A stretch of 64,000 nt of DNA, taken from positions 59,647 to 123,646 of the forward strand of contig SKMK01000020.1 in NCBI GenBank assembly GCA_007121075.1. Direction: 5' to 3'. Every line of letters starts with the position of its first letter. The first letter of the stretch is position 1. Positions 16,710 to 59,132 of the stretch are shown in pieces. Position numbers and translations under genes: made by a program. The DNA comes from Syntrophomonadaceae bacterium (GTDB taxonomy: Bacteria > Bacillota > Dethiobacteria > DTU022). Under the pieces are notes generated by a model. The model ran no database searches, was not told where the DNA came from, and saw only the letters and a program-made list of their open reading frames with translations.

Positions 16710-17831
16710 TTGGAAAAAGAGAAGGCTTTAGAATCAGCCTTGCTGCAAATTGAAAAACAATTCGGCAAGGGTTCAATTATGAAACTGGGACAGGATGCTA
16801 TTGCGGAAGTAGCGGTTATTCCTACCGGCTGCCTGGCCATAGATGCGGCCCTCGGGGTAGGGGGAGTGCCCCGGGGCAGGGTGGTGGAAATATACGGTCC
16901 GGAATCTTCAGGAAAAACCACAGTAGCGCTGCATATTATCGCCGAAGCACAGAAGCGGGGCGGTTTTGCTGCTTTTATAGATGCCGAACACGCTCTCGAC
17001 CCACAGTATGCCACCAACCTGGGTGTTAATCTTGATGAGCTCCTGGTTTCTCAGCCAGATACCGGCGAACAGGCCCTGGAAATTGCCGAGGCGTTGGTCA
17101 GGAGCGGTGCCATTGACGTCCTGGTAGTCGATTCCGTAGCCGCCCTGGTCCCCAGGGCCGAAATTGAAGGGGAAATGGGCGATTCCCATGTAGGTTTACA
17201 GGCCAGGTTGATGTCCCAGGCCCTGCGCAAACTTTCCGGTGTAATCAGCAAATCTAAAACCAGCGCCGTATTCATCAACCAGATCAGGGAGAAGGTAGGG
17301 GTAATGTTTGGCAACCCCGAAGTGACCCCCGGCGGACGGGCTTTGAAGTTTTATTCATCGGTCAGGATGGAAGTAAGAAGGATCGAATCATTAAAAATTG
17401 GATCCGATCAAATTATCGGCAACCGGACCAAAGTAAAAGTGGTTAAGAACAAAGTGGCACCTCCTTTCAAAGTTGCCGAATTTGACATTCTTTACGGAAA
17501 AGGCATATCGGCGGAAGGATCACTGATTGATCTTGGACTTGAGCATAAAGTAATCAACAAAAGCGGGGCCTGGTATTCATACGGTGACGAAAGGCTGGGC
17601 CAGGGCCGTGAAAATGTCAGGGATTACCTGATTGAAAACCCCTATATCCAGCAGGAAATTGAGAAGAAAGTCCGTGAAATGGCCGGGCTGCCCCCGGCAG
17701 CACCAGCCAGGGGAACAGACGGTTCCGCCGCGGACGGAAATGCAAACGCGGACGGAAATGCAAAGATGGAAGGATCGGCGAAGGCGGAAGCAGACAACAA
17801 GACTGGCCAAAACCAGAAAAAACAGTCTTAA
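16710..17831 (+). CDS. recA: recombinase RecA
   Basis: Walker [10 protein letters not shown] and RecA loops L1/L2. TTG start after AGGAGG. An unusual C-terminal tail (see findings). Confidence 0.95.
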
Positions 17832-17846
17832 CGGAGTTGAAACCGT

Positions 17847-18335
17847 TTGGATGAAGAGGAAGCCCTAAAAAAAGCACGCAATCTGATCCTGCGGCTGCTT
17901 ACTTTCCGGGCCCGCAGCCGTAGAGAAGCTTTTGATTACCTGAAACAGAAAGGTTTTTCTGAGGAAATATGCAGTTCCATCGTCAAGGAGATGGAAGATT
18001 ACGGCTACATTAATGACGAACAGTTTGCAGAAGATTTCATCGCCGGCAGAAAAGCACGCGGCCACGGAATCAAAAAGGTCCGATACGAATTGTATATGAA
18101 GGGGATTGACGAAGGACTTATCGATCAGAAGGTCGCCAATAGCTTTGATCCGGATGAAGATCTGGCCAGGATAAAGGAAATCCTGGAGCAGCGCAGAACC
18201 AGGACGGCAAGAGTGGAAGAACCGGGTGAAGAAAATGAACGCCGCCTGAGGCGTGAGGCCGCTTTTTTAAAGCGCCGCGGATTTCAGGACAACCTGATCA
18301 TGAAAGCCCTGAGCGACTTTGATCCGGAAGAATGA
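17847..18335 (+). CDS. recX: recombination regulator RecX
   Basis: A 162 aa three-helical-repeat RecX family protein immediately downstream of recA. Confidence 0.8.
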   Translation: MDEEEALKKARNLILRLLTFRARSRREAFDYLKQKGFSEEICSSIVKEMEDYGYINDEQFAEDFIAGRKARGHGIKKVRYELYMKGIDEGLIDQKVANSFDPDEDLARIKEILEQRRTRTARVEEPGEENERRLRREAAFLKRRGFQDNLIMKALSDFDPEE

Positions 18336-18352
18336 CATATTTTAAGACATTT

Positions 18353-18381
18353 TCTTGACATAATATTTTATTAAAGCTAAA
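18353..18381 (+). promoter_or_regulatory. sigma-A-type promoter upstream of rny (TTGACA-17-TAAAAT)
   Basis: Near-consensus -35 at 18353-18358 and -10 at 18376-18381 with a 17-nt spacer. This implies a ~270-nt 5' UTR. Confidence 0.5.
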
Positions 18382-18649
18382 ATTAACTTGGAAAACAGAA
18401 AATATGTTTGGACTGAATCAGTTCATGAATCAGTTCAGTAGATAACAGTTAAGAGAAAACCCTTGGTGCTTATAAGCACTGCGGATAGATAAAAAAATAT
18501 AATGCATATTTTCAGAACGGGGAGAAAACTGTACCCTTTTCTGGCCTTTCTCTTAAAGCTGTGTCCTGGACGCAGCTTATATTATTTTAAAGAACAGTGT
18601 ACAGAGCAAAACAGTTTCAGCCCCAATCAATGAAATGGAGGTGACCAAT

Positions 18650-20185
18650 ATGCCCAATACGGTTTTGATAATTGCAGCTTCCGCACTGGTCGGAATAGGA
18701 CTTGGCTATATTATTCGAAAAGTAATTGCTGAAGCCAAGATTTCTTCCGCCGAAACCGCAGCAAAACGAATCGTTGAGGAAGCCACTCAAGAAGCCAATG
18801 CTTTGAAAAGAGAAAAAGAACTGGAGGCAAAAGAAGAAACCCACCGGCTTAGGAACGAAATTGAAAAAGAGAGCAAAGAAAGACGTTCAGAATTGCAGAG
18901 AATGGAGCGGCGGTTGCTTCAGAAAGAAGAGAGCCTTGACCGTAAAATAAGTAACGTTGAAAAAAAGGAAGAAGAGCTTCGTAAGAAGGAAGAAGAAAAC
19001 CGGAAAACTGAAGAGAAATTGGAACAGCTTCACCAGGAACAACTTTCCGAACTTGAAAAGATCTCCGGCATGACTTCAGGCGAAGCAAAAGATGTATTAA
19101 TGCAAAGGGTGCGGGAAGATATAGACCATGAAATAACGATGATGGTCAAGGACATGGAAAACCAGGCCCGGGAAGAAGGAGAGAAGAAGGCAAGGGAAAT
19201 TGTTACCCTGGCCATCCAGAGATGTGCCGCAGACCACGTTTCCGAGTCTACTGTCTCTGTCGTTTCACTGCCCAATGATGAGATGAAGGGCAGGATAATC
19301 GGCCGGGAAGGAAGAAATATCAGGGCTCTGGAAACACTAACCGGGATTGATTTGATTATTGATGATACCCCTGAAGCGGTTATAATTTCCGGATTTGATC
19401 CTATCAGGCGTGAAGTCGCCCGTATCGCCCTCGAAAAACTGGTCAGCGACGGACGGATCCATCCGGCCAGGATTGAAGAAATTGTTGAAAAAACCAGGAA
19501 AGAAATCGATGCCCAGATCAAAGAAGAAGGAGAACGGGCTGCCTTCGAAACCAAGGTTCATGGCCTGCACCCGGAACTGGTTACCCTGCTGGGTAAATTG
19601 CGCTACAGGACCAGCTATGGGCAAAACGTTCTGCAGCACTCGATTGAAGTCTCCCACCTTGCCGGAATCATGGCTGCCGAGCTGGGACTTGACATCACAT
19701 TATCCAAGCGGGCAGGCCTCTTGCATGATATCGGTAAAGCCATTGACCATGAAACAGAAGGTTCCCATGTTCAGATAGGCGGGGACCTGGCTAAGAAATA
19801 CAAAGAATCGGCGGTAATTGTCAACGCCGTTGAAGCCCATCACGGCGATACGGATTTCAATACCCTGGAAGCGGTCTTAATTCAGTCTGCGGATGCTATT
19901 TCCGCTGTCCGGCCCGGAGCCAGGCGAGAAACTCTTGAAGCTTATATTAAGAGGCTTGAAAAACTGGAGAACATTGCCGACTCTTTCGAAGGCGTGGAAA
20001 AGGCTTATGCCATCCACGCCGGACGGGAGATCAGGATCATGGTAAAACCAGACCGGATTGATGACTACTCATCGATTAAAGTAGCCCGGGATATAGTTAA
20101 AAAAGTAGAGAATGAGCTTGAGTATCCCGGACAGATTAAAGTTACTGTAATCCGGGAAACAAGGGCGGTTGATTACGCCAAATAA
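18650..20185 (+). CDS. rny: ribonuclease Y
   Basis: N-terminal TM helix, a coiled-coil, a KH domain and an HD domain (HD..HHG). ATG 18650 follows GGAGGTG. Confidence 0.95.
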
Positions 20186-27887: not shown

Positions 27888-27961
27888 TGGCTGCGGGACC
27901 AGGGATCGAACCTGGGCCTGGTGATCCAGAGTCACCCGTGCTGCCGCTACACCATCCCGCA
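27888..27961 (-). tRNA. tRNA-Gln (anticodon CUG), CCA encoded
   Basis: Manual fold of the minus-strand sequence TGCGGGA-TG-GTGT-AGCGGCA-GCAC-G-GGTGA-CTCTGGA-TCACC-AGGC-CCAGG-TTCGATC-CCTGG-TCCCGCA-G-CCA. It has a perfect 7-bp acceptor stem with U1:A72, G73, a 5-bp anticodon stem and a T-loop TTCGATC. The plus-strand ORF 27692-27979 over it is spurious. Confidence 0.7.
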
Positions 27962-31980: not shown

Positions 31981-33072
31981 TTACACATTTCTTCTCCAGT
32001 GTTCAAGAATAGAAGCAAACGTAGCGCCGCACTGAGGGCAGTCTCCATGGTGCCTGAGAATATAAGTGCAGCGACTGCACTTCAAAGCCGGGATTGGTTT
32101 CCCGCGGTCGGTGTCTTCAGCGCCTGTACCCGGCAAATGTTGCTGTTCCGGGAAAGGGCCGCTTTCCGGATCTCCTTTTTCCGGCCCCTTGCCTGCAGCT
32201 CCCTCCCTGCCGCTTAAATCATCTGGACCGGTGGATCCGCTTGAAGCGGGCCCATTATTAACTGTTTTTTCAGGTTCATTAACCGGATTTTGGCTCTTTT
32301 CTACCATATTATTCCTGTCATTTTCATTTCCTAAATAGTCTATAAGCTCGGCCTCCCCCCTTCTTTCCTCCTCTCTTCCATTTTCCCGGGGGCTTATTTC
32401 AGCGGAATGATCCCCCTGATTTTTATCATGGTTTTCCTCTCCAAAATTTTGTTTAACAGCTCCGGCAGGGGCTGCGGCCGGAATACCGCTTCTCCTGTAG
32501 CCCAGGATATCGTAATAAGTCATGCTGTGCTCTTCGAACAGGTGCTTGAGATAGGCCTGGGTTGTCGATGCGTCTCTGTGGCCCAGGGCGTTTTGAGCCA
32601 GGCGGATATCGTTCGTTTCTTTGATGATGTTGACGGCAAAGGTGCTGCGCAAAAGGTGTGGATGGACGTCCTTGTTTATGCCGGCCTTACGGGCCGTTCG
32701 CTTAACCATTTCCCGCAGGTAGCGGTCTTTAAGGCGCCCCCCTTTAAGGGTGCTAAAAAAATAGCTGCTTCCGGGCAATTGGACCAGGTGCCATTTTTCG
32801 AGAAGGGCAAGGAGCTCATCATCAAGCCACAAAGTACGCTCCCTGGCTGCCCCGCTTTCTGCGACATGGATTGTGCTTTCATTCCAGTTGATATCATTAG
32901 CTCTGAGATCCAGGACTTCCCCGGCGCGCAGTCCCGCCCTGAGCATAAGCATCAGCATACAGAGATTGCGCAGGCCGGTAGGCGCTTTTGGATTGGGAAT
33001 CCTCAACAATGCTGCCTGCTCACTGCTGCTTAAGACTGCTGTTTTTTCCCGGGATGGGTTCATAGTATTCAC
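31981..33072 (-). CDS. tyrosine-type site-specific recombinase catalytic domain fused to a disordered linker and C-terminal zinc ribbon
   Basis: Complete R-HxxR-H-Y catalytic signature (GLRAGE; HPHLLRSTFA; LGHRDASTTQAYLKH). No N-terminal core-binding domain. About 140 aa of G/E/N/P-rich low complexity follows, then CSRCTYILRHHGDCPQCG. Confidence 0.7.
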   Translation of the reverse strand: MNTMNPSREKTAVLSSSEQAALLRIPNPKAPTGLRNLCMLMLMLRAGLRAGEVLDLRANDINWNESTIHVAESGAARERTLWLDDELLALLEKWHLVQLPGSSYFFSTLKGGRLKDRYLREMVKRTARKAGINKDVHPHLLRSTFAVNIIKETNDIRLAQNALGHRDASTTQAYLKHLFEEHSMTYYDILGYRRSGIPAAAPAGAVKQNFGEENHDKNQGDHSAEISPRENGREEERRGEAELIDYLGNENDRNNMVEKSQNPVNEPEKTVNNGPASSGSTGPDDLSGREGAAGKGPEKGDPESGPFPEQQHLPGTGAEDTDRGKPIPALKCSRCTYILRHHGDCPQCGATFASILEHWRRNV

Positions 33073-47565: not shown

Positions 47566-48819
47566 TTATTCCCTCACCTGGCCGGATCCGTATATTATAT
47601 ATTTTAATGTGGTCAGGGCCTCCAGGCCCATCGGCCCCCGGGCGTGCAATTTCTGAGTGCTGATTCCCATTTCTGCACCAAGGCCGAACGCGGAACCGTC
47701 TGTAAAGCGGGTTGAAGCATTTACATAAACGGCGGCCGCATCAACTCTGGCCATGAATGTCCTCGAATGATCGTAACTGTCGGTTATGATCGCTTCTGAA
47801 TGGCCTGTGCCGTATTGGTTGATGTGATCAATGGCCCGGTCTAAATTTTCAACTACCCGGACAGCCAAAACCAGGTCAAGGTACTCCGTTTCCCAATCCT
47901 GCCCGGTGGCCGGTTTAATATCCGGCAGGTAAGTTTGCGTTTCCGGGCAGCCCCTTATTTCTACACCCAGTTTGGTTAAAGCGGGCAGCATTTTAGGCAG
48001 AAACCGGGGAGCTATATCTTTATGAACCAGTAATGTTTCCAGGGCATTGCAAACCCCGGGCCGCTGAACCTTGGCATTGACGGTAATAGCTACAGCCTTA
48101 TCCAGGTCGGCGTTATAATCTACAAAAGTATGGCAGTTGCCCGTTCCGGTCTGGATGATCGGAACGGTGGAATTTTCCACCACTGCATTGATCAGGGACT
48201 GTCCTCCACGCGGTATCAGCAAATCCAGGTACCGGTCGGCCTGCATTAAATCAAAAGCGGCACTGCGATCGGTATCTTCGATCAGGGCTATAGCGTCACC
48301 CGGAAGCTCTATAGCTGAAAGGCTCTGCCTGATTACTTTAATCAAAGCCCGGTTGGAATTTAGGGCTTCGGAGCTGCCGCGCAAAATAACGGCGTTTCCC
48401 GCTTTTAAAGCCAATCCCCCGGCATCAACAGTTACATTGGGCCGGGCTTCATAGATGATGGCAATTACTCCAATCGGGACCCGGACCTGGCCAATTTCCA
48501 GGCCATTGGGCCGTTTCCACATCTTTATAACTTCACCTACCGGATCGTCAAGATCTGCAATCCCCCGCAGGCCTTCGGCCGTTTCGGCGATCCGGCTTTC
48601 ATTCAGCATTAGGCGATCGTGAAAAGCATCGGTATAATGATCTTCGCTTTCCAGGCGTTCGAGGTCCTTTTTATTGGCTTCAATTATTTCTTTTTTGCTT
48701 TTTTCAAGGGAAACAGCAATTTTTTCCAGGGCTTTGTTTTTAATCGTGGTCGAAGTATTGGCCAATATTTTTGAGGCCTTACGGGCTTGCCTGCATTTTT
48801 CGAGAACCTCGGGATGCAT
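47566..48819 (-). CDS. proA: glutamate-5-semialdehyde dehydrogenase
   Basis: 417 aa aldehyde dehydrogenase-fold ProA with the catalytic Cys region. proBA arrangement. Confidence 0.9.
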   Translation of the reverse strand: MHPEVLEKCRQARKASKILANTSTTIKNKALEKIAVSLEKSKKEIIEANKKDLERLESEDHYTDAFHDRLMLNESRIAETAEGLRGIADLDDPVGEVIKMWKRPNGLEIGQVRVPIGVIAIIYEARPNVTVDAGGLALKAGNAVILRGSSEALNSNRALIKVIRQSLSAIELPGDAIALIEDTDRSAAFDLMQADRYLDLLIPRGGQSLINAVVENSTVPIIQTGTGNCHTFVDYNADLDKAVAITVNAKVQRPGVCNALETLLVHKDIAPRFLPKMLPALTKLGVEIRGCPETQTYLPDIKPATGQDWETEYLDLVLAVRVVENLDRAIDHINQYGTGHSEAIITDSYDHSRTFMARVDAAAVYVNASTRFTDGSAFGLGAEMGISTQKLHARGPMGLEALTTLKYIIYGSGQVRE

Positions 48820-48858
48820 AATTTTATCAACTCCTGTATCCTTTGATATTAACCTGAG

Positions 48859-49989
48859 TTAATAAATAACCAGGTTATCCCTGTGGATCACTTCTTCGGG
48901 AACCGGCCTGTCTATTATATTGGCGATATCGAGGCTGCTTCTTTTCTGAATCCAGATCAACTCTTCTGAAGCAAAGTTGGTCAATCCCCGGGCCAGTTCA
49001 TTTCCGTAGGGATCTTTGACCGTAATCAGGTCGCCCACAGTGAAAGATCCTTCCACATCGATCACTCCTATGGGCAGCAAACTTTTCCCTTGGGAGCGGA
49101 TTGCATTGCAAGCACCGCTGTCTATTGTAACACTGCCGCACGGAACCTGACCGTAGGCAATCCATCTTTTTCGCCTGCTGAGGAAGCGTTCCTGGGGCTG
49201 GAAATAGGTGCCGGCGTGTTCGCCCTTTAGCAACCTGGAAACCACACCGGGATCATAACCATTGGCAATATACATACCAACCCCTGAATTGGTAGCTACT
49301 TCAGCTGCCTGGAGCTTGGTAATCATCCCCCCTGTTGCCAGGTTGTCATGTGATGTTTCTGCGCCGGCTTTAATGCTGTCGTCGATTTTTTCAACATAAG
49401 GGATCAGTTCAGCATCCGGGTATTTCCTGGGGTTTTTGTTGTACAGACCTTCTATATCGGTGAGGATAACCAGTAAATGAGCATCGCTTAAGCCGGCAAC
49501 CAGCGCGGAAAGGCGATCGTTATCGCCAAATTTCAACTCTTCCACCGAAACCGAATCGTTTTCATTGATAACGGGTACAACCCCGAGTTTGAGCAGGGTT
49601 AAAACTGTATTGCAGGCATTGATATAGCGCCGCCTGCTTACCAGGTCGGTGCGGGTCAGCAAAATCTGTCCAACAACCAGGCCATACTCGGCAAAAAGTT
49701 TTTCATAAATCTGAACCAGCAGGCCCTGCCCGACGGCGGCTATGGCCTGCTTTTCCGGAATGGAGATAGGGTTCCTGTTAATGTTAAGTCTTCCCCGCCC
49801 GGCACCGATCGATCCAGATGAAACCAGGATCACTTCATGACCCTGGTTGCATACATCAGCCAGTTCCCTGGTCAGTTTTTCCATGTACCCCAGGTTAAGT
49901 TTGCCGGTATCGTGAGTTAAAAGGCGGGTTCCTACCTTAACCACGATCCGGCAGGGAGCGGGGATAGAAATTTTTTTGTTTTTAGCCAC
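48859..49989 (-). CDS. proB: glutamate 5-kinase
   Basis: Amino-acid kinase domain plus a C-terminal PUA domain. It overlaps the proC stop. Confidence 0.9.
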   Translation of the reverse strand: MAKNKKISIPAPCRIVVKVGTRLLTHDTGKLNLGYMEKLTRELADVCNQGHEVILVSSGSIGAGRGRLNINRNPISIPEKQAIAAVGQGLLVQIYEKLFAEYGLVVGQILLTRTDLVSRRRYINACNTVLTLLKLGVVPVINENDSVSVEELKFGDNDRLSALVAGLSDAHLLVILTDIEGLYNKNPRKYPDAELIPYVEKIDDSIKAGAETSHDNLATGGMITKLQAAEVATNSGVGMYIANGYDPGVVSRLLKGEHAGTYFQPQERFLSRRKRWIAYGQVPCGSVTIDSGACNAIRSQGKSLLPIGVIDVEGSFTVGDLITVKDPYGNELARGLTNFASEELIWIQKRSSLDIANIIDRPVPEEVIHRDNLVIY

Positions 49990-50797
49990 GGCGCAATTTC
50001 TCCGCCTGATTTGTTGCTGCGATCACCGATTTTAGAAGACAGCTGCGGAACCCTGATTCTTCCAGCACGTGCATGGCTGCCGTGGTTGTCCCGGCCGGGG
50101 AAGTGACGGAATTTCTGAGTTCGGCCGGATGCTGCTTGCTGTTCTCCTGGAGCATGCGGGCAGATCCGATTACATTTTGGATTACCATTTCAGAAGCAAC
50201 ATCACGGCGAAAGCCCACCGCCACCCCGGCATCAATCATGGTTTCAATGAACAAAAATACATAGGCCGGGCCGGTGCCGCTCAGTCCAGTTGCCGCATCC
50301 ATCAGGTATTCAGGGATCCTGATGGTAATGCCCATGGATTTCAGCAATGATTCAATTTCATCTCGCTCTTCCGCGGTTACGTTGTCACCGGCGCTGATAG
50401 CGATTGTGCCTTCCCCAAGTAAACACGGGGTGTTTGGCATCAACCGTATCACCTTGCTGAATGAAGGCAAACAGCTTTCTATAAAATTGATGGTTATTCC
50501 GGCTGCAATGGAAGCAAATATCTGACCCTGCTGGACATAATCTTTAATCGAGTATAGCAGGCTTTCAATGTCCTGGGGTTTGACGGCAATAAAGATTTGC
50601 CGACACTGTGATATCACTTCTTCAAGGTTTTCCGCCCCGATAGCATTCAATTCAAGGGCCAGTTCCTCTACTCTTTCCCGGTTCAGGTCATAAAGGTAAA
50701 CCTGGGCCGGGTCAACACCTACTTTTTTTACAATACCTTTTGCCAGGGCTGAACCCATTGCTCCGCAGCCAATCAAACCAATTTTTTTAATGTCCAT
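49982..50797 (-). CDS. proC: pyrroline-5-carboxylate reductase
   Basis: Rossmann motif GLIGCGAMGSA and the P5CR C-terminal domain. A candidate TTGCAT-17-TAAAAT promoter at 50833-50861 lies just upstream. Confidence 0.9.
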   Translation of the reverse strand: MDIKKIGLIGCGAMGSALAKGIVKKVGVDPAQVYLYDLNRERVEELALELNAIGAENLEEVISQCRQIFIAVKPQDIESLLYSIKDYVQQGQIFASIAAGITINFIESCLPSFSKVIRLMPNTPCLLGEGTIAISAGDNVTAEERDEIESLLKSMGITIRIPEYLMDAATGLSGTGPAYVFLFIETMIDAGVAVGFRRDVASEMVIQNVIGSARMLQENSKQHPAELRNSVTSPAGTTTAAMHVLEESGFRSCLLKSVIAATNQAEKLRRG

Positions 50798-50982
50798 GTT
50801 GATCTTTCCTCTCCTTTAAAAACTTATCACTTATTTTAACCAAAGGGCAAAGTTAATGCAATAGCAGGCATATAGAAAAGTTTTCATGCCTTTTCAGGTA
50901 CAAATTGTATAAGGTGCTTAAGATATTAAGGGGTCCTTCAGGTTAACTTGCAGGCATACTGGCGGCTTGTGTACAAATAAAT

Positions 50983-51277
50983 AAAAAGCCAGGTTCCAAC
51001 AGGCCTTCCAGCTTTCCGTCGGATTTCTTCACTGTCCCCTCTACAGTCGGGATTCCACCACCGCCTCTGGATGGCTTTCCCCCAACCTCCGGGCAGTTAC
51101 TTTCATCCGTGCTGTGATTCCCGGTAAAATCCCGGCCCGTAAGCCTTTCAATTACCGGTTCTTTCAGCGATCCAGCTTTAGGGATGGCCCTTCCGTGGAT
51201 TCCGGTTTACCCTTCCTCCACTTCCGGTTTCCCTGCCGACCGGACCCGGTTCACTTTCCAGTCTCTCGGAACCTGGC
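50983..51277 (-). ncRNA. candidate ~295-nt purine-rich structured non-coding element (sRNA / leader / MITE-like), unclassified
   Basis: Minus-strand TTGACA-17-AATAAT promoter at 51284-51312. A perfect 10-bp long-range inverted repeat, GCCAGGTTCC with GGAACCTGGC, encloses 275 nt and is followed by a U-tract. There is no ORF. About 18 GGA motifs, many in an (A/C)CGGAAG context. Confidence 0.35.
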
Positions 51278-51345
51278 ATTATTATTATTGATCAATCCTG
51301 TCAGTTTGTCAATACCTTTTACAAGATTTTTATTTGTTTCTTTTG

Positions 51346-52545
51346 TCAGGCAAATATTTTTCTGATCTTGTCCAGGGCCCAGTCCAGGTCTTCACGGGTG
51401 ACAACCAGCGGAGGCGTAAACCGGATCACATTCTCGTGGGTTTCCTTGGAGAGGATCCCCACCTTCATAAGTTCTTCGCAATAACTGCGAGCCTTGACTT
51501 TAAGTTCAATTCCCGTCAGCAAACCTTTGCCCCTGACTTCGACTATCTGCGGATTATCGATCTTTTTCAGCTCTTCAACAAAATATTTTCCGCTTTCCAG
51601 GGATTTCTCAACCAGGTTTTCTTCCTGCAGCACATCCATAGCGGATATACCAACGGCACAGGCCAGGGGGTTGCCGCCAAAGGTGGAACCGTGGGAGCCG
51701 GGATCGAAAACGTCCATAATGCTGTCATCGGCAGCTATAGCCGAGATAGGCAGGACTCCGCCCCCCAGGGCTTTGCCGAGGATGTAAATATCGGGTTTAA
51801 CGTCTTCCCAGTCGCAGGCAAAAAGTTTTCCGGCCCGGCCAAACCCGGTTTGAATCTCATCGGCCATAAAGAGGATGTTGTTTTCTTGGCAAACCCGGTA
51901 AGCTTCTTTCAGGAACCCCTCCGGGGGAATAATAATACCACCTTCACCCTGGATCGGCTCGATTAACAGGCCGGCTGTGTTGGGGGTAATTGCTTTTTTT
52001 AAGGCTTCGAGATTGCCGTATTCAATCAGCTTGAATCCCGGTGTAAAAGGCCCAAAATCCTTGTTATAAGATTCATCAGAGCTGAATGAAACGACGGTTA
52101 TGGTTCTGCCGTGGAAATTACCGTTGCAGACAATTACTTCAGCTTTGTTGCCGGGAATGTTTTTCTTGCGGTAAGCCCATCTACGGACGGCTTTGAGGGC
52201 CGTTTCAACCGCTTCAGCACCGGTATTCATGGGTAGGATTTTTTCTTTTCCTGTCAGCCTGGACAGTTTTTCGCTAAAGGGGCCCAGTTTGTCATTATGG
52301 AAGGCCCTGGAGGTTACCGTAATCATGTCGGCCTGATCTTTTAAAGCCTTGATAATTTTAGGGTGGCAATGGCCAAAATTCATTGCCGAATAAGCACTTA
52401 ACATATCCATGTAGCGATTTCCTTCTGGATCTTCGACCCATACCCCTTCTGCCCGCGATAGGATTACCGGCAAAGGAAGATAATTACGGGCTCCATACTG
52501 TTCTGTGATACTGAGTATTTCATTTGTGCTGGTAATTTTAATCAC
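51346..52545 (-). CDS. rocD: ornithine--oxo-acid aminotransferase
   Basis: Class-III PLP aminotransferase with Lys in TSRAFHND...GKALGGG, closest to the OAT/RocD subfamily. 399 aa. Confidence 0.8.
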
Positions 52546-52619
52546 CCCGTTTATTAATATTGCCGGAACGCAACCAGTTATTAAAAGCCTGTGCGCCCTG
52601 AGTTAACTTTATAGTCGTT

Positions 52620-53699
52620 TTATCTTATAGTTTCTTTTCCAGGCATGGGATTCGGCTCTGTCCAAATTTTACCCTCAAAATTCCTAAGAGAAACAGATTT
52701 TTCATCTCTATAGACTATGTTCTGTGGAGACATTGGACACTTCCCATAAGGAGTATCAAGGAGATATACCGGAACACAGAAACCGCTGGTGAAGCCTTGT
52801 AATTTCTTAATGATATTGATTCCACTTTCAATCGGAGTCCGAAAATGATTAGTACCATGTAAAATTTGACACTGATAAAGGTAATAAGGTCGGACACGCA
52901 TTTTAACAAGACCATGAACCAGTCTTTGATATATTTCAGGATCATCATTAACGCCTTTGAGAAGAACCGATTGGTTGCCAAGAGGAATACCAGCTTCAGA
53001 TAACATTTCACAGGCTTTGCTGGCCTGTTCAGTCAACTCTTTAGGGTGATTAAACTGAACATTTACCCAAAGAGGGTGATATTTATTCAACATTGAACAT
53101 AATTCGGAGGTTATCCTCTGCGGCATGGTGCAAGGTGTGCGGGTACCTATTCTAACAATTTCAATATGCTCTATCTCCCGAAGTCTGGCAATAATTTCTT
53201 CTAACCAATCAGTTTCATTAAGAAAAGGATCTCCTCCTGTTAAAAGTACGTCTCGTATCTCCGAGTTTTCCTTCAGCCACTCTATAGATTCTAAAATATT
53301 GTCTTTGGTAATATATGTCTCAGCCATGTTTACAAATTTCTTCCGAAAACAATGGCGGCAAAGCATCGCACATTGATTGCTTACTGTAAAGGCCAAACGA
53401 TCAGGGTAAACACGCACCAATCCCTTAGTTGGTTGGTGTTCTTCTTCATGAAGAGGATCTTCAACACCAAATGGGTCAAAAAGCTCATTTTTGTTTGGTA
53501 AAGCTTGTTTTCTAATTGGGCATTCCTGATTGTTCGTTGACATAAGACTCGCATAATATGGGGTTGTTGACCAACTATATTCCTTAGATACTTTTTCTAT
53601 ATCCTTTTTTTCGTCATCAGTTAGGTTAATGTATTGCTCAAGTTCTTTTACTGTGGATATCCTGTTTTCCAACTGCCAATGCCAATCTTCAAAAGACAC
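52620..53699 (-). CDS. KamA-family radical SAM aminomutase (lysine 2,3-aminomutase-like), short form
   Basis: CAMLCRHCFRKKF radical SAM triad. Strong collinearity with lysine 2,3-aminomutase (DPLHEE..., RVYPDRL..., GNQSVLLKGVNDD, RPYYLYQC). Only 359 aa, so it lacks the usual C-terminal extension. The gene is visibly AT-rich compared with its neighbours. Confidence 0.7.
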   Translation of the reverse strand: MSFEDWHWQLENRISTVKELEQYINLTDDEKKDIEKVSKEYSWSTTPYYASLMSTNNQECPIRKQALPNKNELFDPFGVEDPLHEEEHQPTKGLVRVYPDRLAFTVSNQCAMLCRHCFRKKFVNMAETYITKDNILESIEWLKENSEIRDVLLTGGDPFLNETDWLEEIIARLREIEHIEIVRIGTRTPCTMPQRITSELCSMLNKYHPLWVNVQFNHPKELTEQASKACEMLSEAGIPLGNQSVLLKGVNDDPEIYQRLVHGLVKMRVRPYYLYQCQILHGTNHFRTPIESGINIIKKLQGFTSGFCVPVYLLDTPYGKCPMSPQNIVYRDEKSVSLRNFEGKIWTEPNPMPGKETIR

Positions 53700-54060
53700 T
53701 AATAATCACCTCATTTTACATAATTAACTATTAAATAACATTTATTCATAATTTTTGTAAATCCACATATCCCTTGCAACTTGTGGTATTTTATTTAAAC
53801 TTCGTCATAATTGACAAAACCCCTTCACTTCTATCACGCATTTTAATTAATTTCCCAAAAAACAGGCTCACTAAGATTTGTTCTCTATATACATTCTTAC
53901 TAAACACTGTTTTAAAAATCACCATAAAAATACAGTAGCGTTGCACAATAATAATCTCAAAATGTCAAGAAATGATATTTGAAGTATTCGCTGTCACCCA
54001 GCTGCAGCAATTAACTTGTATGACACTGGCCTCCTCCTTTCGAAAATCGCCACTTCACAC

Positions 54061-54091
54061 AACGAATGCCGCTGTAAAAGCGGCATTCGTT
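54061..54091. repeat. perfect 13-bp-arm hairpin downstream of tRNA-Trp
   Basis: AACGAATGCCGCT-gtaaa-AGCGGCATTCGTT. Confidence 0.5.
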
Positions 54092-54100
54092 TAAACGCTA

Positions 54101-54176
54101 TGGCAGGGGAGACAGGACTTGAACCCGCAGCCTGCGGTTTTGGAGACCGCTGCTCTGCCAGTTGAGCTACTCCCCT
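54101..54176 (-). tRNA. tRNA-Trp (anticodon CCA), CCA encoded
   Basis: The minus-strand sequence AGGGGAG-TA-GCTC-AACTGGCA-GAGC-A-GCGGT-CTCCAAA-ACCGC-AGGCT-GCGGG-TTCAAGT-CCTGT-CTCCCCT-G-CCA folds as a canonical cloverleaf. Confidence 0.8.
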
Positions 54177-54246: not shown

Positions 54247-56628
54247 TTATCCCAATTCATGGGCGGTACGGGCAATTATTTCGTTTTGAAGCTGCTCGCT
54301 GAGATTGTTGAAATAATCGCTGTAGCCAGCCACCCTGACAATCAGGTTACGGTACTGCTCCGGGCTCTTTTGAGCTTCACGCAGTGTGTCGGCATCGATC
54401 ACGTTGAACTGGATGTGATGGCCGTCAAGTATAAAGTAAGCACGGATCAGCTGGGCCAGGCTGTCCAACCCCTTGTTGCCCGCCAAAACCCGGGGAGTAA
54501 ATTTCATGTTCAAGAGGGTGCCGCCCGTAAGCAGGTGGTCCATTTTTGAAGCCGACTTAATTACCGCAGTAGGCCCGTTAAGGTCAACGCCCTGGGCGGG
54601 AGAGATTCCTTCGGATAAAGGCAGCCCGGCCAGCCGCCCATCGGGTGTTGCCCCGATTACCGAGCCAAAGTAAACATGGCAGGTGGTGGGCAGCATATTG
54701 ATCCGGTATGTGCCTCCACGGGCCGTCCCGCGCCCGTCCACGGTGCGGTGGAAACGCTTGAACACCTCCTGCATAATGATATCGGCGTAGTCATCGTCAT
54801 TGCCATAATGCGGGGTTTTGCGGATTAAAAACTGTCTTTTGTCTTCCCCGTTTTGGTAGTTGTTACTGAGCAGTTCAAGCAATTCTTTCCAGGTAAAATT
54901 TTTCTCTTCGAAAATATGCTTTTTAAGTGATGACAGGCTGTCGGTAATGGTGCCAATGCCAACGCCCTGGATATAGCTGGTATTGTAACGGGCACCGCCG
55001 GCATTGTAGTCCCTGCCGTTGTCGATGCAGTCATCGATTATCAGGGAGAGGAACGGGGCAGGCATTTGCTCGGCATACAGTTTTTCAATAACCTGGTTAC
55101 CGGCAATTTTGATGTCAATAAAGTAGCGAAGTTGTTTTTCAAAGGCTTCGAGCAGATGATCAAAGTTTTCGAACTGATCCGGGTTCCCGGTATCAAGCCC
55201 CACCATTTTCCCATCCGCCGGGTTTTTGCCGTCATTCAACGTTATTTCCAGGATTTTGACCAGGTTGAAATAACCGGTCAGAATATAGCTTTCCCTGCCG
55301 AAAGCGCCGGTTTCCACGCAACCGCTGGTCCCACCACAGCGGGCATCAATCAGTGATTTACCCTGGGCCAGCAGCTCACTGATTACTGCTTCAACATTAA
55401 AGACTGAGGGCTGGCCCCAGCCTTTCCTGATCACCTCCCCTGCTTTTTTCAAAAACAGGTCGGGGCTTTTTTTGCTGACCTGGACGTTGGTGCTCGGTTG
55501 CAGCAGCCTCATCTCATCGATTACTTCCAGCAGCAGATAAGTGACGTCATTTATTCCATCGCTACCGTCCGGTCTGACCCCTCCCAGGTTGATGTTGGCA
55601 AAATCAGTATAGGTGCCGCTTTCCTGCAAAGTAATCCCTACCTTGGGCGGGGCGGGCTGGTTGTTAAATTTGATCCAGAAGCACTCCAGCAGCTCCCTGG
55701 CCTTTTCCCTGGACAGGGAGCCATCTTCCAGGCCCTGATAATAAAATGGAGCCAGATGCTGGTCAAGACGGCCCGGGCAAAAGGCATCCCAGGTATTTAG
55801 TTCGGTAACCACACCCAGGTGCACAAACCAGTAATACTGCAGGGCTTCCCGGAAGTTGCGGGGCGGATAGGCCGGGACACGCTCACAAACAGCAGCAATT
55901 TGCTGAAGCTCCTGTTTTCGCCGGGCATTTTTTTCGGCACCGGCCAGCTCCCTTGCCTTTTTGGCATGGCGCCCGGCAAACGCAACCACGGCATCGGCGC
56001 AAACAGACATTGCTTCCAGCTGTTCACTCTTGGAAACAGCTTCAGGATCGTTCATAAAATCAAGTCCCGAGAGCACCTTCGCAATCTCTTCCTTCAGATC
56101 AAGCATCCCCTTTTTATAAATTTTATCACCGGCCACGGTGTGCCCCGGAGCGCGCTGTTCCATAAATTCAGTAAACAAACCGGCCTCGTAACAGTTCAGC
56201 CATTCTTTGCTCATCCGGCTGAAAATTTTATCCCTCATCGAACGCCCCTGCCAGTAAGGGATGATGGTTTCTTCCTGGATTTTTTTAACATCGTCGGTAA
56301 CTTTAAAGGAAATGGTCTTGCGATTATTGATAACATCCAGATCATCCAGGGTATGGCAGCACAGTTCGGGATAAGTGGGGGCAGCCTGCGGTCCGGTCCC
56401 CCTTTCCCCGACAATCAGTTCATCTTCATTAATACAGGTAGTTTTATTTTCCATCAGGTGCTTAAACGCAAGCGCTCTGAGCATTGGCGCGGTCACCTTG
56501 CCTTCGTACTTGCGATAAGCTTCTGTTACCAGCACCGCCCTCTCGGCGGTGATAGCCGGTACTGTATCTTCGCTCTGCTGCCTTAATTTTTTAACCCTTT
56601 CATTCATACCTCTGATCTCTTCACTCAT
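54247..56628 (-). CDS. glycyl radical enzyme, PFL2/glycerol-dehydratase class (substrate unknown; trans-4-hydroxy-L-proline dehydratase is one candidate)
   Basis: C-terminal glycyl radical motif RVAGYS and a Cys-loop GCVE in SGCVETG. About 793 aa if it starts at ATG 56628, which has a GAGGA RBS; the ORF-track start at 56691 overlaps the activase. Confidence 0.75.
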   Translation of the reverse strand: MSEEIRGMNERVKKLRQQSEDTVPAITAERAVLVTEAYRKYEGKVTAPMLRALAFKHLMENKTTCINEDELIVGERGTGPQAAPTYPELCCHTLDDLDVINNRKTISFKVTDDVKKIQEETIIPYWQGRSMRDKIFSRMSKEWLNCYEAGLFTEFMEQRAPGHTVAGDKIYKKGMLDLKEEIAKVLSGLDFMNDPEAVSKSEQLEAMSVCADAVVAFAGRHAKKARELAGAEKNARRKQELQQIAAVCERVPAYPPRNFREALQYYWFVHLGVVTELNTWDAFCPGRLDQHLAPFYYQGLEDGSLSREKARELLECFWIKFNNQPAPPKVGITLQESGTYTDFANINLGGVRPDGSDGINDVTYLLLEVIDEMRLLQPSTNVQVSKKSPDLFLKKAGEVIRKGWGQPSVFNVEAVISELLAQGKSLIDARCGGTSGCVETGAFGRESYILTGYFNLVKILEITLNDGKNPADGKMVGLDTGNPDQFENFDHLLEAFEKQLRYFIDIKIAGNQVIEKLYAEQMPAPFLSLIIDDCIDNGRDYNAGGARYNTSYIQGVGIGTITDSLSSLKKHIFEEKNFTWKELLELLSNNYQNGEDKRQFLIRKTPHYGNDDDYADIIMQEVFKRFHRTVDGRGTARGGTYRINMLPTTCHVYFGSVIGATPDGRLAGLPLSEGISPAQGVDLNGPTAVIKSASKMDHLLTGGTLLNMKFTPRVLAGNKGLDSLAQLIRAYFILDGHHIQFNVIDADTLREAQKSPEQYRNLIVRVAGYSDYFNNLSEQLQNEIIARTAHELG

Positions 56629-56629
56629 C

Positions 56630-57535
56630 TCAATCATCCTCGCTGAGTATTTTAATCCCCTGCGTTTTAAACCGGCCCTTGACCCGGTCAAACTCTTCTG
56701 CGGTGGGAGTATTAATCGTCCCGGGGCGATATTCCAGGTCGAGCCGGGTATACTTGGCGGTTCCGAGATTATGATAAGGAATCAGTTCAAGCTCATCAAG
56801 TCCATACTCTTGTAACAGCTCCGCTACGGCATCGATATTATGGTCGTGATCGTTTATTGTTGGAATGACCGGCATCCGGGCTTTGATCCTGGCTCCTTTT
56901 TTCACCAGTTTTTTCAGGTTGTCAATACCCAGGTTGTTTGACATCCCGGTAAACTTCCTGCTTTCAAGGTCGTCAGCCAGCTTGAGATCATACAGAAACA
57001 GGTCGGCGCGGTCGGCAATACGCTCCAGGTCCGCCCAGGGAGCACAACCGGAAGTATCAATAACAGTATGAACTTCTTCCCGATTAAAAGCTTTAAGCGC
57101 CTCTTCCAGGAAATCGGGCTGCAGAAGAGGTTCTCCGCCGGAAAAAGTAATCCCGCCCCCGGATCTGTCGAATATAAACCGGTCCTTTAGAGCTTCTTTT
57201 ACCAGCTCTCCCACCGTGTATTCTTTTCCCACCGCTTCCAGGGCTTCGGCAGGGCAAACAGCGGCACATTCTATACATCGGACACAAAGATCACGGTTTA
57301 TAACCGGCCCTGTTTCCCCGACCCTGATTGCCCCTTCCGGGCAGACTTCCATACAGGCTGCGCAACCCAGGCAGCGTTCCGGTTGTCTCATAATATCAGT
57401 CTCCGGGCTGATGCTTTCCGGGTTCTGGCACCACCAGCAGCTAAGGGGGCAGCCTTTGAAAAAGATGGTGGTCCTGATCCCGGGCCCGTCATGTAAAGAA
57501 TAGCGCTGTATATTGAAAATAAGTCCCTTTTTCAT
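56630..57535 (-). CDS. glycyl-radical enzyme activating enzyme (radical SAM, with extra ferredoxin-like clusters)
   Basis: N-terminal CPLSCWWC radical SAM motif, GPGIRTT and two additional CxxCxxCxxxC-type clusters. 301 aa. Confidence 0.85.
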   Translation of the reverse strand: MKKGLIFNIQRYSLHDGPGIRTTIFFKGCPLSCWWCQNPESISPETDIMRQPERCLGCAACMEVCPEGAIRVGETGPVINRDLCVRCIECAAVCPAEALEAVGKEYTVGELVKEALKDRFIFDRSGGGITFSGGEPLLQPDFLEEALKAFNREEVHTVIDTSGCAPWADLERIADRADLFLYDLKLADDLESRKFTGMSNNLGIDNLKKLVKKGARIKARMPVIPTINDHDHNIDAVAELLQEYGLDELELIPYHNLGTAKYTRLDLEYRPGTINTPTAEEFDRVKGRFKTQGIKILSEDD

Positions 57536-57554: not shown

Positions 57555-59132
57555 TTATGTTTCTTTGTTGAGTTTTTCATATATAGTCCTGGCTGTTTCT
57601 GTGACTGAGAGCCCGCCCCGGCCGGTACAGCGCAGTTCCGAAGGGAGCATTTTGCCGCAGCTGTACATGGCCCCAATAGTTTCATCAAGGGGAATAACCC
57701 TGTCAAACCCGGCCAGGGCCATATCGGCACAGCCAACTGCATTAAGCCCGGCCATTATGTTTTTTCCCAGGCAGGGCACTTCCACTCTTTCAGCCACCGG
57801 ATCGCAGACCATGCCCATCACATTTTGAAGGGCCATGGCCGCTGCATCAAATCCCTCTCCCACCGTACCGCCCGCCATTTGAACCAGCCCCGCGGCGGCC
57901 ATACCGGAGGCGGATCCGCATTCGGCCTGACAGCCGCATTCTTCTGCGGCAAAAGTGCTGCTTCCGGCAATTAGGGCTCCAACCAGGCCGGCGGCCAGCA
58001 AACTTTTAACAATTTGATCGTTTTCAAGCTGTTTGTCCCCGGCTACAGCAGTCAGAGTTCCGGGAAGGGTGCCGCATGACCCGGCCGTGGGGGCCGCTAC
58101 AATCACCCCGAAGGCGCTTTTTGTTTCCATCACGGCGCTGGTATTGGCAATAATGGCGGCAGAAAGATCATCTCCGATCAGCCTGCTCCGGTGGTTGATT
58201 ATTAGTTGTGACTGTGGCCCCAGGATCCGGTTGCTGTATTCGGTCCCGGCCAAACCTTCCCGCACCGACTGCTCCATAACCCGGGCCAATTCACAGGCCA
58301 TCTGCCACACTTCTGATTCGGATATCCCTCCTCGAATACTTTCGTAACGTAGGGCCAGCTCCCACAGGGCCAGGTTTTCCCGTTCTGCCAGGGCCAAAGC
58401 TTCCCCGGCGCTTTCAAAGGGCATCCGGTAGTCCTTTTTTGAACGGACCGGGAGCAACGGTTCGATTTGGATGACCGCAAGCGGGTTGGTTTGCCCATTT
58501 ATCGCCTGTACCAGCCTGTCTTCTAATTTATAACCGGTTTTAAGGTTGATCAGGCCTTTATTTCCCGCTGCAGCAATAGTTATATAATCGTAGCCGGAAA
58601 CCATCTCCGCTATGATTCTGCTGTATTTCTGCAGAGTGCCTGGATTCGGATCATTGTAAAACAACAGGGTTTCATCAAAACCGCCTCCAATCGAAACATC
58701 AAAGCCATTGATGTTTCGAACATCGATCATGCCCCCGCCGGTAGAAAGACAAATCAGCTGCATTTCTTCTCCTTTATCTGAAGCGGCCCTGATCCGGTAA
58801 GTATTGGGGTGATCGGCTGGAAAAGGAGTAATATTAAAAGAAATGTCCAGGTTTTTCTGCCGGGCCGTTTCCAGGGCAGTGCACAGTCCCGGATCGCTTA
58901 AATCCATTCCTAAAAGTCCAGCGGCCAGGCCGATATCGGCGCCCTGCTCGTGGTAGGTGGAGGCCAGGGAACCGTCGGGATCAAAATCGACATGACAGTA
59001 GCGGCAGGTCCCGGGCAGGCACTGCTTGACGACACAGCCGATCCTGACCGAAGCAGCTGTGTGTGAGCTGGATGACCCCCTCATGATCGGGCCGATGACA
59101 TCGTTAAAAATACTTGGCGGTTGTTTTTCCAT
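57555..59132 (-). CDS. sdaA: L-serine dehydratase, iron-sulfur dependent, fused beta-alpha single chain
   Basis: Beta-type N-terminus (SIFNDVIGPIMRGSSSSHTAASVRIG) and alpha-type C-terminus (GCQAECGSASGMAAAG). 525 aa. Confidence 0.75.
   Translation of the reverse strand: MEKQPPSIFNDVIGPIMRGSSSSHTAASVRIGCVVKQCLPGTCRYCHVDFDPDGSLASTYHEQGADIGLAAGLLGMDLSDPGLCTALETARQKNLDISFNITPFPADHPNTYRIRAASDKGEEMQLICLSTGGGMIDVRNINGFDVSIGGGFDETLLFYNDPNPGTLQKYSRIIAEMVSGYDYITIAAAGNKGLINLKTGYKLEDRLVQAINGQTNPLAVIQIEPLLPVRSKKDYRMPFESAGEALALAERENLALWELALRYESIRGGISESEVWQMACELARVMEQSVREGLAGTEYSNRILGPQSQLIINHRSRLIGDDLSAAIIANTSAVMETKSAFGVIVAAPTAGSCGTLPGTLTAVAGDKQLENDQIVKSLLAAGLVGALIAGSSTFAAEECGCQAECGSASGMAAAGLVQMAGGTVGEGFDAAAMALQNVMGMVCDPVAERVEVPCLGKNIMAGLNAVGCADMALAGFDRVIPLDETIGAMYSCGKMLPSELRCTGRGGLSVTETARTIYEKLNKET

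Follow-up and report, generated by a model that had tools for sequence, protein, structure and literature searches.

Lysine 2,3-aminomutase (LAM) of Clostridium subterminale, also known as KamA or AblA, is the closest described system to the gene considered here. It is a radical S-adenosylmethionine (SAM) and pyridoxal phosphate (PLP) enzyme with a chain of 416 residues. Two other KamA-family enzymes, glutamate 2,3-aminomutase (Eam) and arginine 2,3-aminomutase, are re-targeted in specificity at the side-chain-binding positions. EpmB (YjeK) is also a short enzyme of this family, without the C-terminal domain. The gene of interest lies in a 64,000-nucleotide stretch of contig SKMK01000020.1 (assembly GCA_007121075.1, Syntrophomonadaceae bacterium), which we call the window. 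It encodes a KamA-like protein of 359 residues and sits between a tRNA-Trp gene and rocD in an islet of low GC content (Table 1).

We consider it very probable that this islet is a recently acquired single-gene cassette, made of an AT-rich leader, a promoter-like site and an intact gene, that was inserted between the tRNA-Trp terminator and rocD and encodes a complete member of a group of KamA proteins with Gln in place of LAM Asp293 (Gln-type). Overall it is a variant within a known enzyme family, delivered by ordinary gene acquisition. It will stay of modest importance as long as neither a new specificity nor a new β-amino-acid ligation pathway is demonstrated. As a single-gene acquisition it is clean and datable, with an empty site, a donor-like homologue and a trace of an insertion sequence (IS).

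Fold and active site of the KamA-like protein

The translated gene passes the KamA-family subfamily model TIGR00238 with 312.1 bits against a cut-off of 199.2. It falls below the cut-offs of the models for lysine 2,3-aminomutase AblA (TIGR03820, 450.3 vs 525.4), Eam (TIGR04368, 453.6 vs 650), arginine 2,3-aminomutase (TIGR04468, 408.1 vs 600), the AblA-like-2 family (279 vs 396) and EpmB (TIGR03821, 222.2 vs 369.3); the hidden Markov model scores for Eam and the arginine enzyme are of similar size (454 and 408). Alignment with LAM (PDB entry 2A5H, the only solved structure, E 3e-118) is collinear over LAM residues 17–369 of 416 with about 48–50% identity, and the chain stops just before the C-terminal CxCxxC zinc/oligomerisation tail of LAM. 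The initial annotation had recognized a KamA-family radical SAM/PLP gene that is collinear with the core of the Clostridium enzyme and ends before its Cys-rich tail, and both the 2A5H alignment and TIGR00238 bear this out.

The catalytic residues of LAM are retained. Cys110, Cys114 and Cys117 of the CxxxCxxC motif align with LAM Cys125, Cys129 and Cys132, Arg119 with LAM Arg134, Asp315 with LAM Asp330 and Lys320 with the PLP lysine Lys337, and the same 1,2-amino shift would be expected. The differences from KamA and AblA are found around the substrate and the zinc. Gln278 takes the position of LAM Asp293, and Asp253 that of the LAM zinc ligand Cys268. The PLP loop reads DTPYGK, two residues shorter than DAPGGGGK in LAM, and the C-terminal CxCxxC/tetramerisation tail is absent. 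An AlphaFold model made with 26 homologues has a predicted local distance difference test score (pLDDT) of 89.9 and a predicted template modelling score (pTM) of 0.90. Foldseek with this model gives 2A5H as the best match (template modelling score 0.87), and no other PDB entry scores above 0.5. By its sequence, the gene is predicted to encode a complete KamA-family radical SAM/PLP aminomutase with intact catalytic motifs.

The best 120 homologues (55–68% identity) are mostly 345–399 residues long, with one of 563, and they end at about the same place as the query. Among these 120 sequences and the query, the residue at LAM position 293 is Gln in 113, Glu in 6 and Asp in 2. The equivalents of Asp330, Lys337 and Arg134 are invariant in all 121, and Cys occurs at position 268 in none of them. 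Twenty-six clade members, when aligned, share all three cluster cysteines without exception and a conserved C-terminal W-x-EPNP motif, in which Asn350 is invariant. Ninety-four other KamA-family loci, mostly of canonical long KamA, served as controls; they were taken from among the matches listed in a genome-contig profile search with the clade alignment, which was of little use for finding close relatives. Every control locus examined at LAM position 293 has Asp together with a DAPGGGGK-type loop, most have Cys268, and the long forms carry the CxCxxC tail. The Gln, the DTPYGK loop and the missing zinc Cys occur together in the clade.

The Gln-type proteins are monophyletic in a neighbour-joining tree, and their nearest outgroups are short proteins with Asp at position 293 (Asp-type), which score 555, 523 and 515 bits against the AblA cut-off of 525. 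These AblA-like proteins, encoded beside a Ddl-like ATP-grasp gene (for example at loci L020, L053 and L075), form the closest sister groups and share the short, tail-less architecture. Unlike the window protein, they retain Asp293 with the GGGGK loop, and their scores lie above or close to the AblA cut-off. The equivalog models all reject five other Gln-type members, just as they reject the window protein. These features place the window protein in a large and distinct KamA subclade that is short, without a zinc site and marked by Gln for Asp293 and by the DTPYGK loop. The clade is missing one of the two aspartates that bind lysine as well as the entire zinc site, and it falls short of all curated functional models. 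Its members are annotated as 'KamA family radical SAM protein' by NCBI and as 'lysine 2,3-aminomutase' by JGI, and a literature search returned no paper characterizing a Gln-type enzyme. With the substrate of this clade established, many annotations would be corrected, and a new β-amino-acid route might emerge.

The length of the protein had led the initial annotation to propose either an EpmB-like short aminomutase or a 3'-truncated kamA. The chain is indeed shorter than the 416 residues of LAM and lacks the Cys tail, and EpmB is a short enzyme too. However, the best 120 homologues are mostly just as short, the W-x-EPNP terminus is conserved in the 26 clade members, the ratio of non-synonymous to synonymous divergence (dN/dS) is about 0.2 and the structural model is confident and complete, all of which speaks against a decaying gene. 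An EpmB-type enzyme for β-lysylation of elongation factor P is opposed by the EpmB score (222 vs 369 bits) and by the lack of an epmA gene resembling lysyl-tRNA synthetase anywhere in the 64-kb window. The residue pattern at the side-chain site of EpmB presumably differs from that of the window protein as well. Both proposals are extremely improbable.

In 14 of the 18 other Gln-type loci, the gene directly upstream and on the same strand encodes a Ddl-like ATP-grasp protein, with gaps of −43 to 816 nt. This protein matches PF07478 and is below the Ddl cut-offs. The same partner precedes short Asp-type KamA genes, sometimes in tandem pairs, and is absent at long canonical kamA loci. Short genes of either type regularly follow one or two such ligase genes. 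Short KamA and the Ddl-like ATP-grasp protein form an apparently uncharacterized two-gene module, which occurs in metagenome-assembled genomes (MAGs) and genomes labelled Planctomycetota/Brocadiaceae, Nitrospirota, Salinibacter/Rhodothermus relatives, Bacteroidota, Omnitrophota and Bacillota. A literature search on the pairing of ATP-grasp and aminomutase proteins gave nothing specific. At one Gln-type locus (L120) a GNAT gene follows directly downstream, and some loci hold a MATE exporter. No homologue of the ATP-grasp, Orr, GNAT or HDAC-like proteins was found by tblastn in the 64 kb of the window, and since the neighbours of the homologues gave no matches there, the window has no pseudogenes left over from donor neighbours.

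The window gene and its nearest homologue outside the host lineage, P0002, are sisters in the tree and are two of the five Gln-type loci without ATP-grasp (of 19 including the window). In the region L001 7177–11116, a gene for a PrdR-like sigma-54 activator is followed by one for an Orr-like ornithine racemase (NF040742, 460 bits with the cut-off at 480), and the P0002 gene lies 316 nt downstream of the latter. The L001 locus has a GC content of 34% and also contains sortase and SpoIIM genes.

Composition and origin of the islet

The GC content is 0.30–0.39 over positions 52600–54000, compared with about 0.50 elsewhere in the window, and the lowest two of the 64 1-kb GC bins are the two that cover the islet. 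Among 49 large open reading frames (ORFs), whose mean GC content at third codon positions (GC3) is 0.533, the KamA-like gene has a GC of 0.384 (z −3.9), a GC3 of 0.319 (z −3.8) and the second lowest codon-adaptation-like index. The GC3 of the flanking genes is 0.527 for rocD and 0.593 for hypD. The tetranucleotide distance of 52572–54036 (z +5.4) is the highest among 313 sliding windows of the 64 kb. Amino-acid content does not explain the GC3 and tetranucleotide deviation of the gene (GC3 0.32 vs 0.53 ± 0.06). The compositional anomaly of the islet is far beyond chance. The windowed GC, GC3, codon-index and k-mer checks confirm the AT-rich segment described by the initial annotation, and gene and tRNA lie at the positions it gave. 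Just one further compositional peak occurs, at 17600–19500 (tetranucleotide z about 3.7, GC 0.42), and it covers the recX-rny intergenic region and the Lys/Glu-rich N-terminus of RNase Y and is ordinary.

No Rfam family (E up to 1) matches the leader of the islet, which shows neither a riboswitch nor a T-box or Na+ element. Its folding shows no structure beyond chance (z −0.73), its small ORFs are short and none is convincing, and in an alignment with the leader of P0002 AT-richness alone is common to both. A possible role in defence was dismissed, as all that PADLOC gave was generic noise from radical-SAM (viperin) models at E about 1e-4.

The loci of relatives were reached via the rocD homologue P0125. 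A MAG contig of the host (L089, GCA_007126875.1) matches the window with 99.96% identity across 7.3 kb and contains the same insert. A sister lineage of about 93–96% identity (L091, GCA_003554615.1; metagenome contig L093; four short-read contigs) has the order hypD, tRNA-Trp, KamA-like gene, rocD and proCBA. In L092 (GCA_003552905.1; RocD 87% identical in amino acids, 74–78% in nucleotides) the same synteny is found from the serine dehydratase gene on, without the KamA-like gene. There, hypD, tRNA-Trp and the same terminator hairpin are followed by about 130 bp and then by rocD, proCBA and the ROK gene. The breakpoints relative to L092 fall at window positions 54036/54037 and 52571/52572, where 1465 bp in the window stand opposite about 91 unrelated bp in L092. 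Because this syntenic relative has an empty site, the islet is an insertion.

Apart from the copies of the host lineage (98–99%), the nearest homologue is P0002 at 68% identity. The P0002 gene has a GC of 0.386 in a locus of GC 0.338, compared with 0.384 for the window gene, and its 90%-identity cluster includes a sequence labelled as a Thermoanaerobacterales MAG. The source is likely a low-GC Firmicute, since the nearly equal GC of the two genes suggests that the window gene keeps such a signature. The initial annotation had also taken the segment for acquired DNA, and the empty site in L092, the composition shared with a low-GC homologue and the IS remnant of the sister lineage described below agree with it. 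Alternatively, the KamA-like gene could be ancestral and deleted in the L092 lineage, with a low GC that has some cause other than transfer. This is compatible with the single empty-site genome examined and with the non-coding parts of the islet, which have diverged between host lineages like ordinary DNA. It is at odds with the GC3 and tetranucleotide deviation that amino-acid content leaves unexplained, with a gene composition equal to that of the closest homologue from DNA of GC 0.34, with the step from host-lineage copies to a nearest homologue in another low-GC organism, and with the IS remnant at the site. We regard ancestry followed by loss as very improbable.

The KamA-like ORFs of the window and the sister lineage differ at 8 synonymous and 7 non-synonymous sites, with a synonymous divergence (dS) of 0.037. 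The flanking genes are far more diverged, with a dS of 0.185 in rocD and of 0.227 in hypD (Fisher p 1.6e-9). The islet leader is 8.3% diverged between the same two lineages and the spacer 9.6%. The KamA-like gene is under purifying selection and its ORF has a more recent common ancestor than the flanks, because dN/dS is about 0.2 and the dS of the ORF is far below theirs.

The initial annotation had placed the AT-rich DNA directly at the 3' end of tRNA-Trp and pointed to classical integration there. The tRNA gene does adjoin the islet, but the AT-rich DNA starts about 65 nt beyond it, after the terminator. Repeats at the islet ends, direct or inverted, and copies of the tRNA 3' end amount to short chance matches only. 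The islet holds a single ORF, and no integrase is encoded within 19 kb of it. Classical integration at tRNA-Trp is unsupported because the junction lies past the terminator, no flanking repeat exists and no integrase is found within 19 kb. The nearest and only ORF of the Phage_integrase family (31981–33072, minus strand, 363 residues) is 19.5 kb away and of normal GC. It lies 4 kb from a tRNA-Gln gene (27888–27961), with glycosyltransferase, PGA_cap and BPL_N-like genes between, and is unrelated to the islet.

The mobile-element trace found at the site comes from the sister lineage, whose copy of the islet carries extra DNA 44 bp inside the islet (Table 1). It contains a truncated ORF of 155 residues on the opposite strand that matches the N-terminus of IS4-family transposases (PF14294/DUF4372; NF033592, E 1e-15). 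The four short-read contigs of this lineage all break at 53969, as expected for a repeated element at that point. The window copy of the islet is free of any IS sequence. Classical integration of the islet at the tRNA-Trp 3' end, through a tyrosine integrase that has since been lost, would fit the adjoining tRNA gene, the atypical composition and the presence that varies between relatives. Yet the junction past a conserved terminator, the unduplicated tRNA 3' end, the missing integrase and the IS4 nature of the only trace make this very improbable. An origin by IS-associated or illegitimate recombination rather than by a tRNA-targeting integrase is likely, because the IS4 transposase remnant lies inside the islet of the sister lineage. 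The islet resembles IS-associated single-gene insertions in its foreign composition, its presence and absence among close relatives and this IS4 remnant. It differs from them in that no inverted repeats or target-site duplication can be detected and the window copy has no IS sequence. The case shows that adjacency to a tRNA alone does not imply integrase-mediated insertion.

Several points weigh against the account of a recently acquired cassette with a complete Gln-type gene. The empty site was observed in one genome, L092, and the donor is deduced from composition and a 68% homologue only. No terminal inverted repeat or target-site duplication was found at the ends of the islet or of the IS remnant, and the sister lineage could have gained the remnant later. 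The dS of the ORF is 5–6 times below that of the flanks, yet the non-coding parts of the islet are 8–10% diverged, so a single ancestral insertion is not sufficient as an explanation. Gene conversion limited to the ORF, or re-acquisition from a shared pool, is possible for this trough. For the promoter and for co-transcription with rocD, the evidence is limited to consensus matches. Finally, most clade members are paired with an ATP-grasp gene that is absent from the window; the normal pathway partner of the enzyme may be missing or be encoded elsewhere in the genome.

Proposed reaction, substrate and expression

The mechanism follows from the established chemistry of LAM. The reduced [4Fe-4S] cluster on Cys110, Cys114 and Cys117 would cleave SAM to the 5'-deoxyadenosyl radical. 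This radical would abstract the β-hydrogen of the substrate, held as an external aldimine of PLP, which would otherwise be bound to Lys320. The amino group would migrate from Cα to Cβ via an azacyclopropylcarbinyl radical to give a β-amino acid. Arg119 (LAM Arg134) is expected to bind the α-carboxylate, and Asp315 (LAM Asp330) and Gln278 the side-chain end of the substrate.

Because Arg134 and one acidic side-chain ligand are kept, a basic amino acid is the probable substrate (lysine, ornithine or arginine-like), and glutamate is less likely. In the 2007 work of Ruzicka and Frey, Eam is said to have Lys and Asn at LAM positions 293 and 330, where the window protein has Gln and Asp. The side-chain site appears to differ from that of lysine-specific enzymes, because Gln replaces Asp293 and the Tyr-bearing PLP loop is shorter. 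LAM is redirected to alanine when one active-site Asp is changed (PMC9850924). Literature searches for statements on Asp293 and Asp330 gave nothing specific, the comma in '2,3-' being unsearchable. The initial annotation had raised a specificity other than for lysine, and the residue alignment keeps it live through the Gln at the Asp293 position. We judge the chances of a non-lysine substrate to be about even.

One candidate role is at the node of ornithine, pyrroline-5-carboxylate (P5C) and proline, where the enzyme would act on L- or D-ornithine or otherwise serve this node, for instance in a β-ornithine-type route linked to rocD. Two independent contexts hint at this. The window gene lies 74 nt upstream of rocD and near proCBA and hypD, and its sister P0002 lies beside the genes for the Orr-like racemase and the PrdR-like activator; both lack the ATP-grasp partner. 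With Asp315 retained and the PLP loop shortened and bearing a Tyr, the site could accommodate a shorter basic substrate. Against this, the position in the host may be an accident of the recent insertion, the pocket residues do not differ from those of the ATP-grasp-linked members and do not indicate a specificity particular to this pair, and the contexts number only two, in one of which the Orr-like score is just under its cut-off. The literature search turned up no ornithine 2,3-aminomutase, and the genes nearby encode no downstream pathway for 3,5-diaminopentanoate. A role with ornithine is possible, though on balance unlikely.

The gene might also, as the initial annotation suggested, make a β-amino-acid compatible solute, such as N-ε-acetyl-β-lysine from β-lysine, beside proline in a haloalkaline habitat. 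The sample names SL_8KL_010_SED and ML8_F2 suggest a hypersaline soda lake, and a GNAT gene follows the Gln-type gene in L120. Free β-lysine is not known as an osmolyte in its own right, which counts against a solute role. The 64-kb window contains no ablB-type GNAT, whether by tblastn or among its annotated ORFs, no ATP-grasp gene and no Na+/osmotic riboswitch, the leader has no other riboswitch either, and the protein is below the AblA cut-off with Gln at the Asp293 position. A precedent comes from some Firmicutes, in which the KamA-family genes ablA and eam are osmotic-stress genes under Na+ riboswitches (PMC9337991). Taken with these points, we find production of a compatible solute distinctly unlikely.

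A wider proposal is that the clade with Gln293, the DTPYGK loop and no zinc has a specificity new to the KamA family, for example L- or D-ornithine, and that it was captured here as a stand-alone enzyme that plugs a β-amino-acid branch into the ornithine-P5C-proline node, while short KamA with ATP-grasp would form a widespread pathway that makes a β-amino acid and then ligates it. We offer this tentatively and think it unlikely to hold as a whole.

The KamA-like gene is probably expressed, as suggested by the promoter-like site, the strong Shine-Dalgarno sequence and a start codon that is conserved as ATG in the sister lineage. Transcription is predicted to start from its own promoter candidate and to read through into rocD, which is plausible because no terminator precedes rocD.

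Neighbouring genes and the leader of the proline operon

On the minus strand the order of genes is fused L-serine dehydratase, activase, hypD, tRNA-Trp, KamA-like gene, rocD, proC, proB, proA and ROK kinase. The features are listed in Table 1. The rocD, proCBA and glycyl radical enzyme genes named as neighbours by the initial annotation were all confirmed, and the glycyl radical enzyme is identified as HypD. The HypD activase is above the cut-off of TIGR02494 (336 vs 174 bits) and below that of its own equivalog NF043069 (369 vs 425).

Table 1. Positions of the islet, its parts and the surrounding features in the window, with the short KamA loci found elsewhere
Feature	Position	Strand	Remarks	Evidence
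Inserted low-GC islet	52572..54036		1465 bp; stands for the ~91-bp tRNA-Trp/rocD spacer of L092	Alignment breakpoints, GC, tetranucleotide distance
KamA-like gene	52620..53699	minus	359 residues, intact, GTG start; ATG in sister lineage	
Shine-Dalgarno GAGGTGA	53706..53712	minus	6 nt 5' of start codon; kept in L091	Sequence reading
Non-coding AT-rich leader	53700..54036 (337 nt)	minus	Arrived with gene; unstructured	
Sigma-70-like promoter candidate TTGTCA-18-TAAAAT, 10/12	53788..53817	minus	Part-conserved in L091	Consensus scan only
Spacer from KamA-like gene to rocD, 74 nt	52546..52619	minus	No terminator-like hairpin	Sequence and terminator scan
Extra DNA of sister lineage, 671–692 bp	Between 53992 and 53993		44 bp inside islet; L091 5912–6582, L093 4799–5490	IS4-family transposase ORF
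tRNA-Trp (CCA)	54101..54176	minus	Own promoter-like site 54216–54188; separate transcription unit	ARAGORN; Rfam 65.8 bits
tRNA-Trp terminator, perfect 13-bp hairpin	54061..54091	minus	Outside islet; kept in empty-site L092	
HypD (trans-4-hydroxy-L-proline dehydratase) and activase	54247..57535	minus	Native, upstream of tRNA-Trp	NF043068, 1371 vs 1100
rocD, ornithine--oxo-acid transaminase	51346..52545	minus	Native, directly 3' of insert	NF003145, 695.7 bits vs 656
Non-coding proCBA leader, ~300 nt	50975–51282	minus	In 550-nt rocD-proC spacer; near-consensus promoter-like site 51312–51284	
proC-proB-proA, proline biosynthesis	47566..50797	minus	Native	TIGR00112, TIGR01027, NF001221, all above cut-offs
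Short KamA + ATP-grasp loci			L003, L004, L008, L012, L019, L022, L060, L066, L082, L084, L094, L119–L121	
Further short KamA + ATP-grasp loci			L006, L020, L021, L023, L031, L033, L053, L067, L071, L075, L077, L104–L117	

Some gene boundaries in this region deserve comment. A single ORF of 525 residues at 57555–59132 (minus strand), directly upstream of the hypD activase gene, comprises the β and α subunits of iron-sulfur L-serine dehydratase, and this fused arrangement is kept in L091 and L092. The mechanically called hypD ORF (54247–56691, 814 residues, TTG start) overlaps the activase gene; its relatives are called at 793 residues. The start of rocD is ambiguous: the call is 399 residues here (a GTG within the Shine-Dalgarno-like motif GGGGTGA), NCBI lists 354, and for the sister lineage it is 408. 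The remaining window is core chromosome and includes rbfA, truB, pnp, rnj, ftsK, recA, rny, gltX, lexA, hflX, miaA, mutL, mutS, miaB, rtcB and surE.

Relatives of the MutS protein carry the names 'Bacillota bacterium' or 'Firmicutes bacterium ML8_F2'. A copy of the KamA-like gene with 98% identity lies on metagenome contig SL_8KL_010_SED and was the sole close copy in a scan of metagenome contigs. From these sample and accession names, the host appears to be an uncultured Bacillota lineage from soda-lake sediment.

The leader in front of proCBA is about 90% identical between the window and L092, compared with 74–78% for the flanking genes. It is purine-rich and has a minimum free energy of −125.6 kcal/mol (z −4.8 vs shuffled sequence). 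Neither a credible Rfam match nor a T-box was found in it. Its two ends pair as a long-range closing helix, GCCAGGTTCC with GGAACCTGGC, which is followed by a run of U, and four compensatory pairs occur among three sequences. The element looks like a candidate for an undescribed cis-regulatory RNA of the proline operon.

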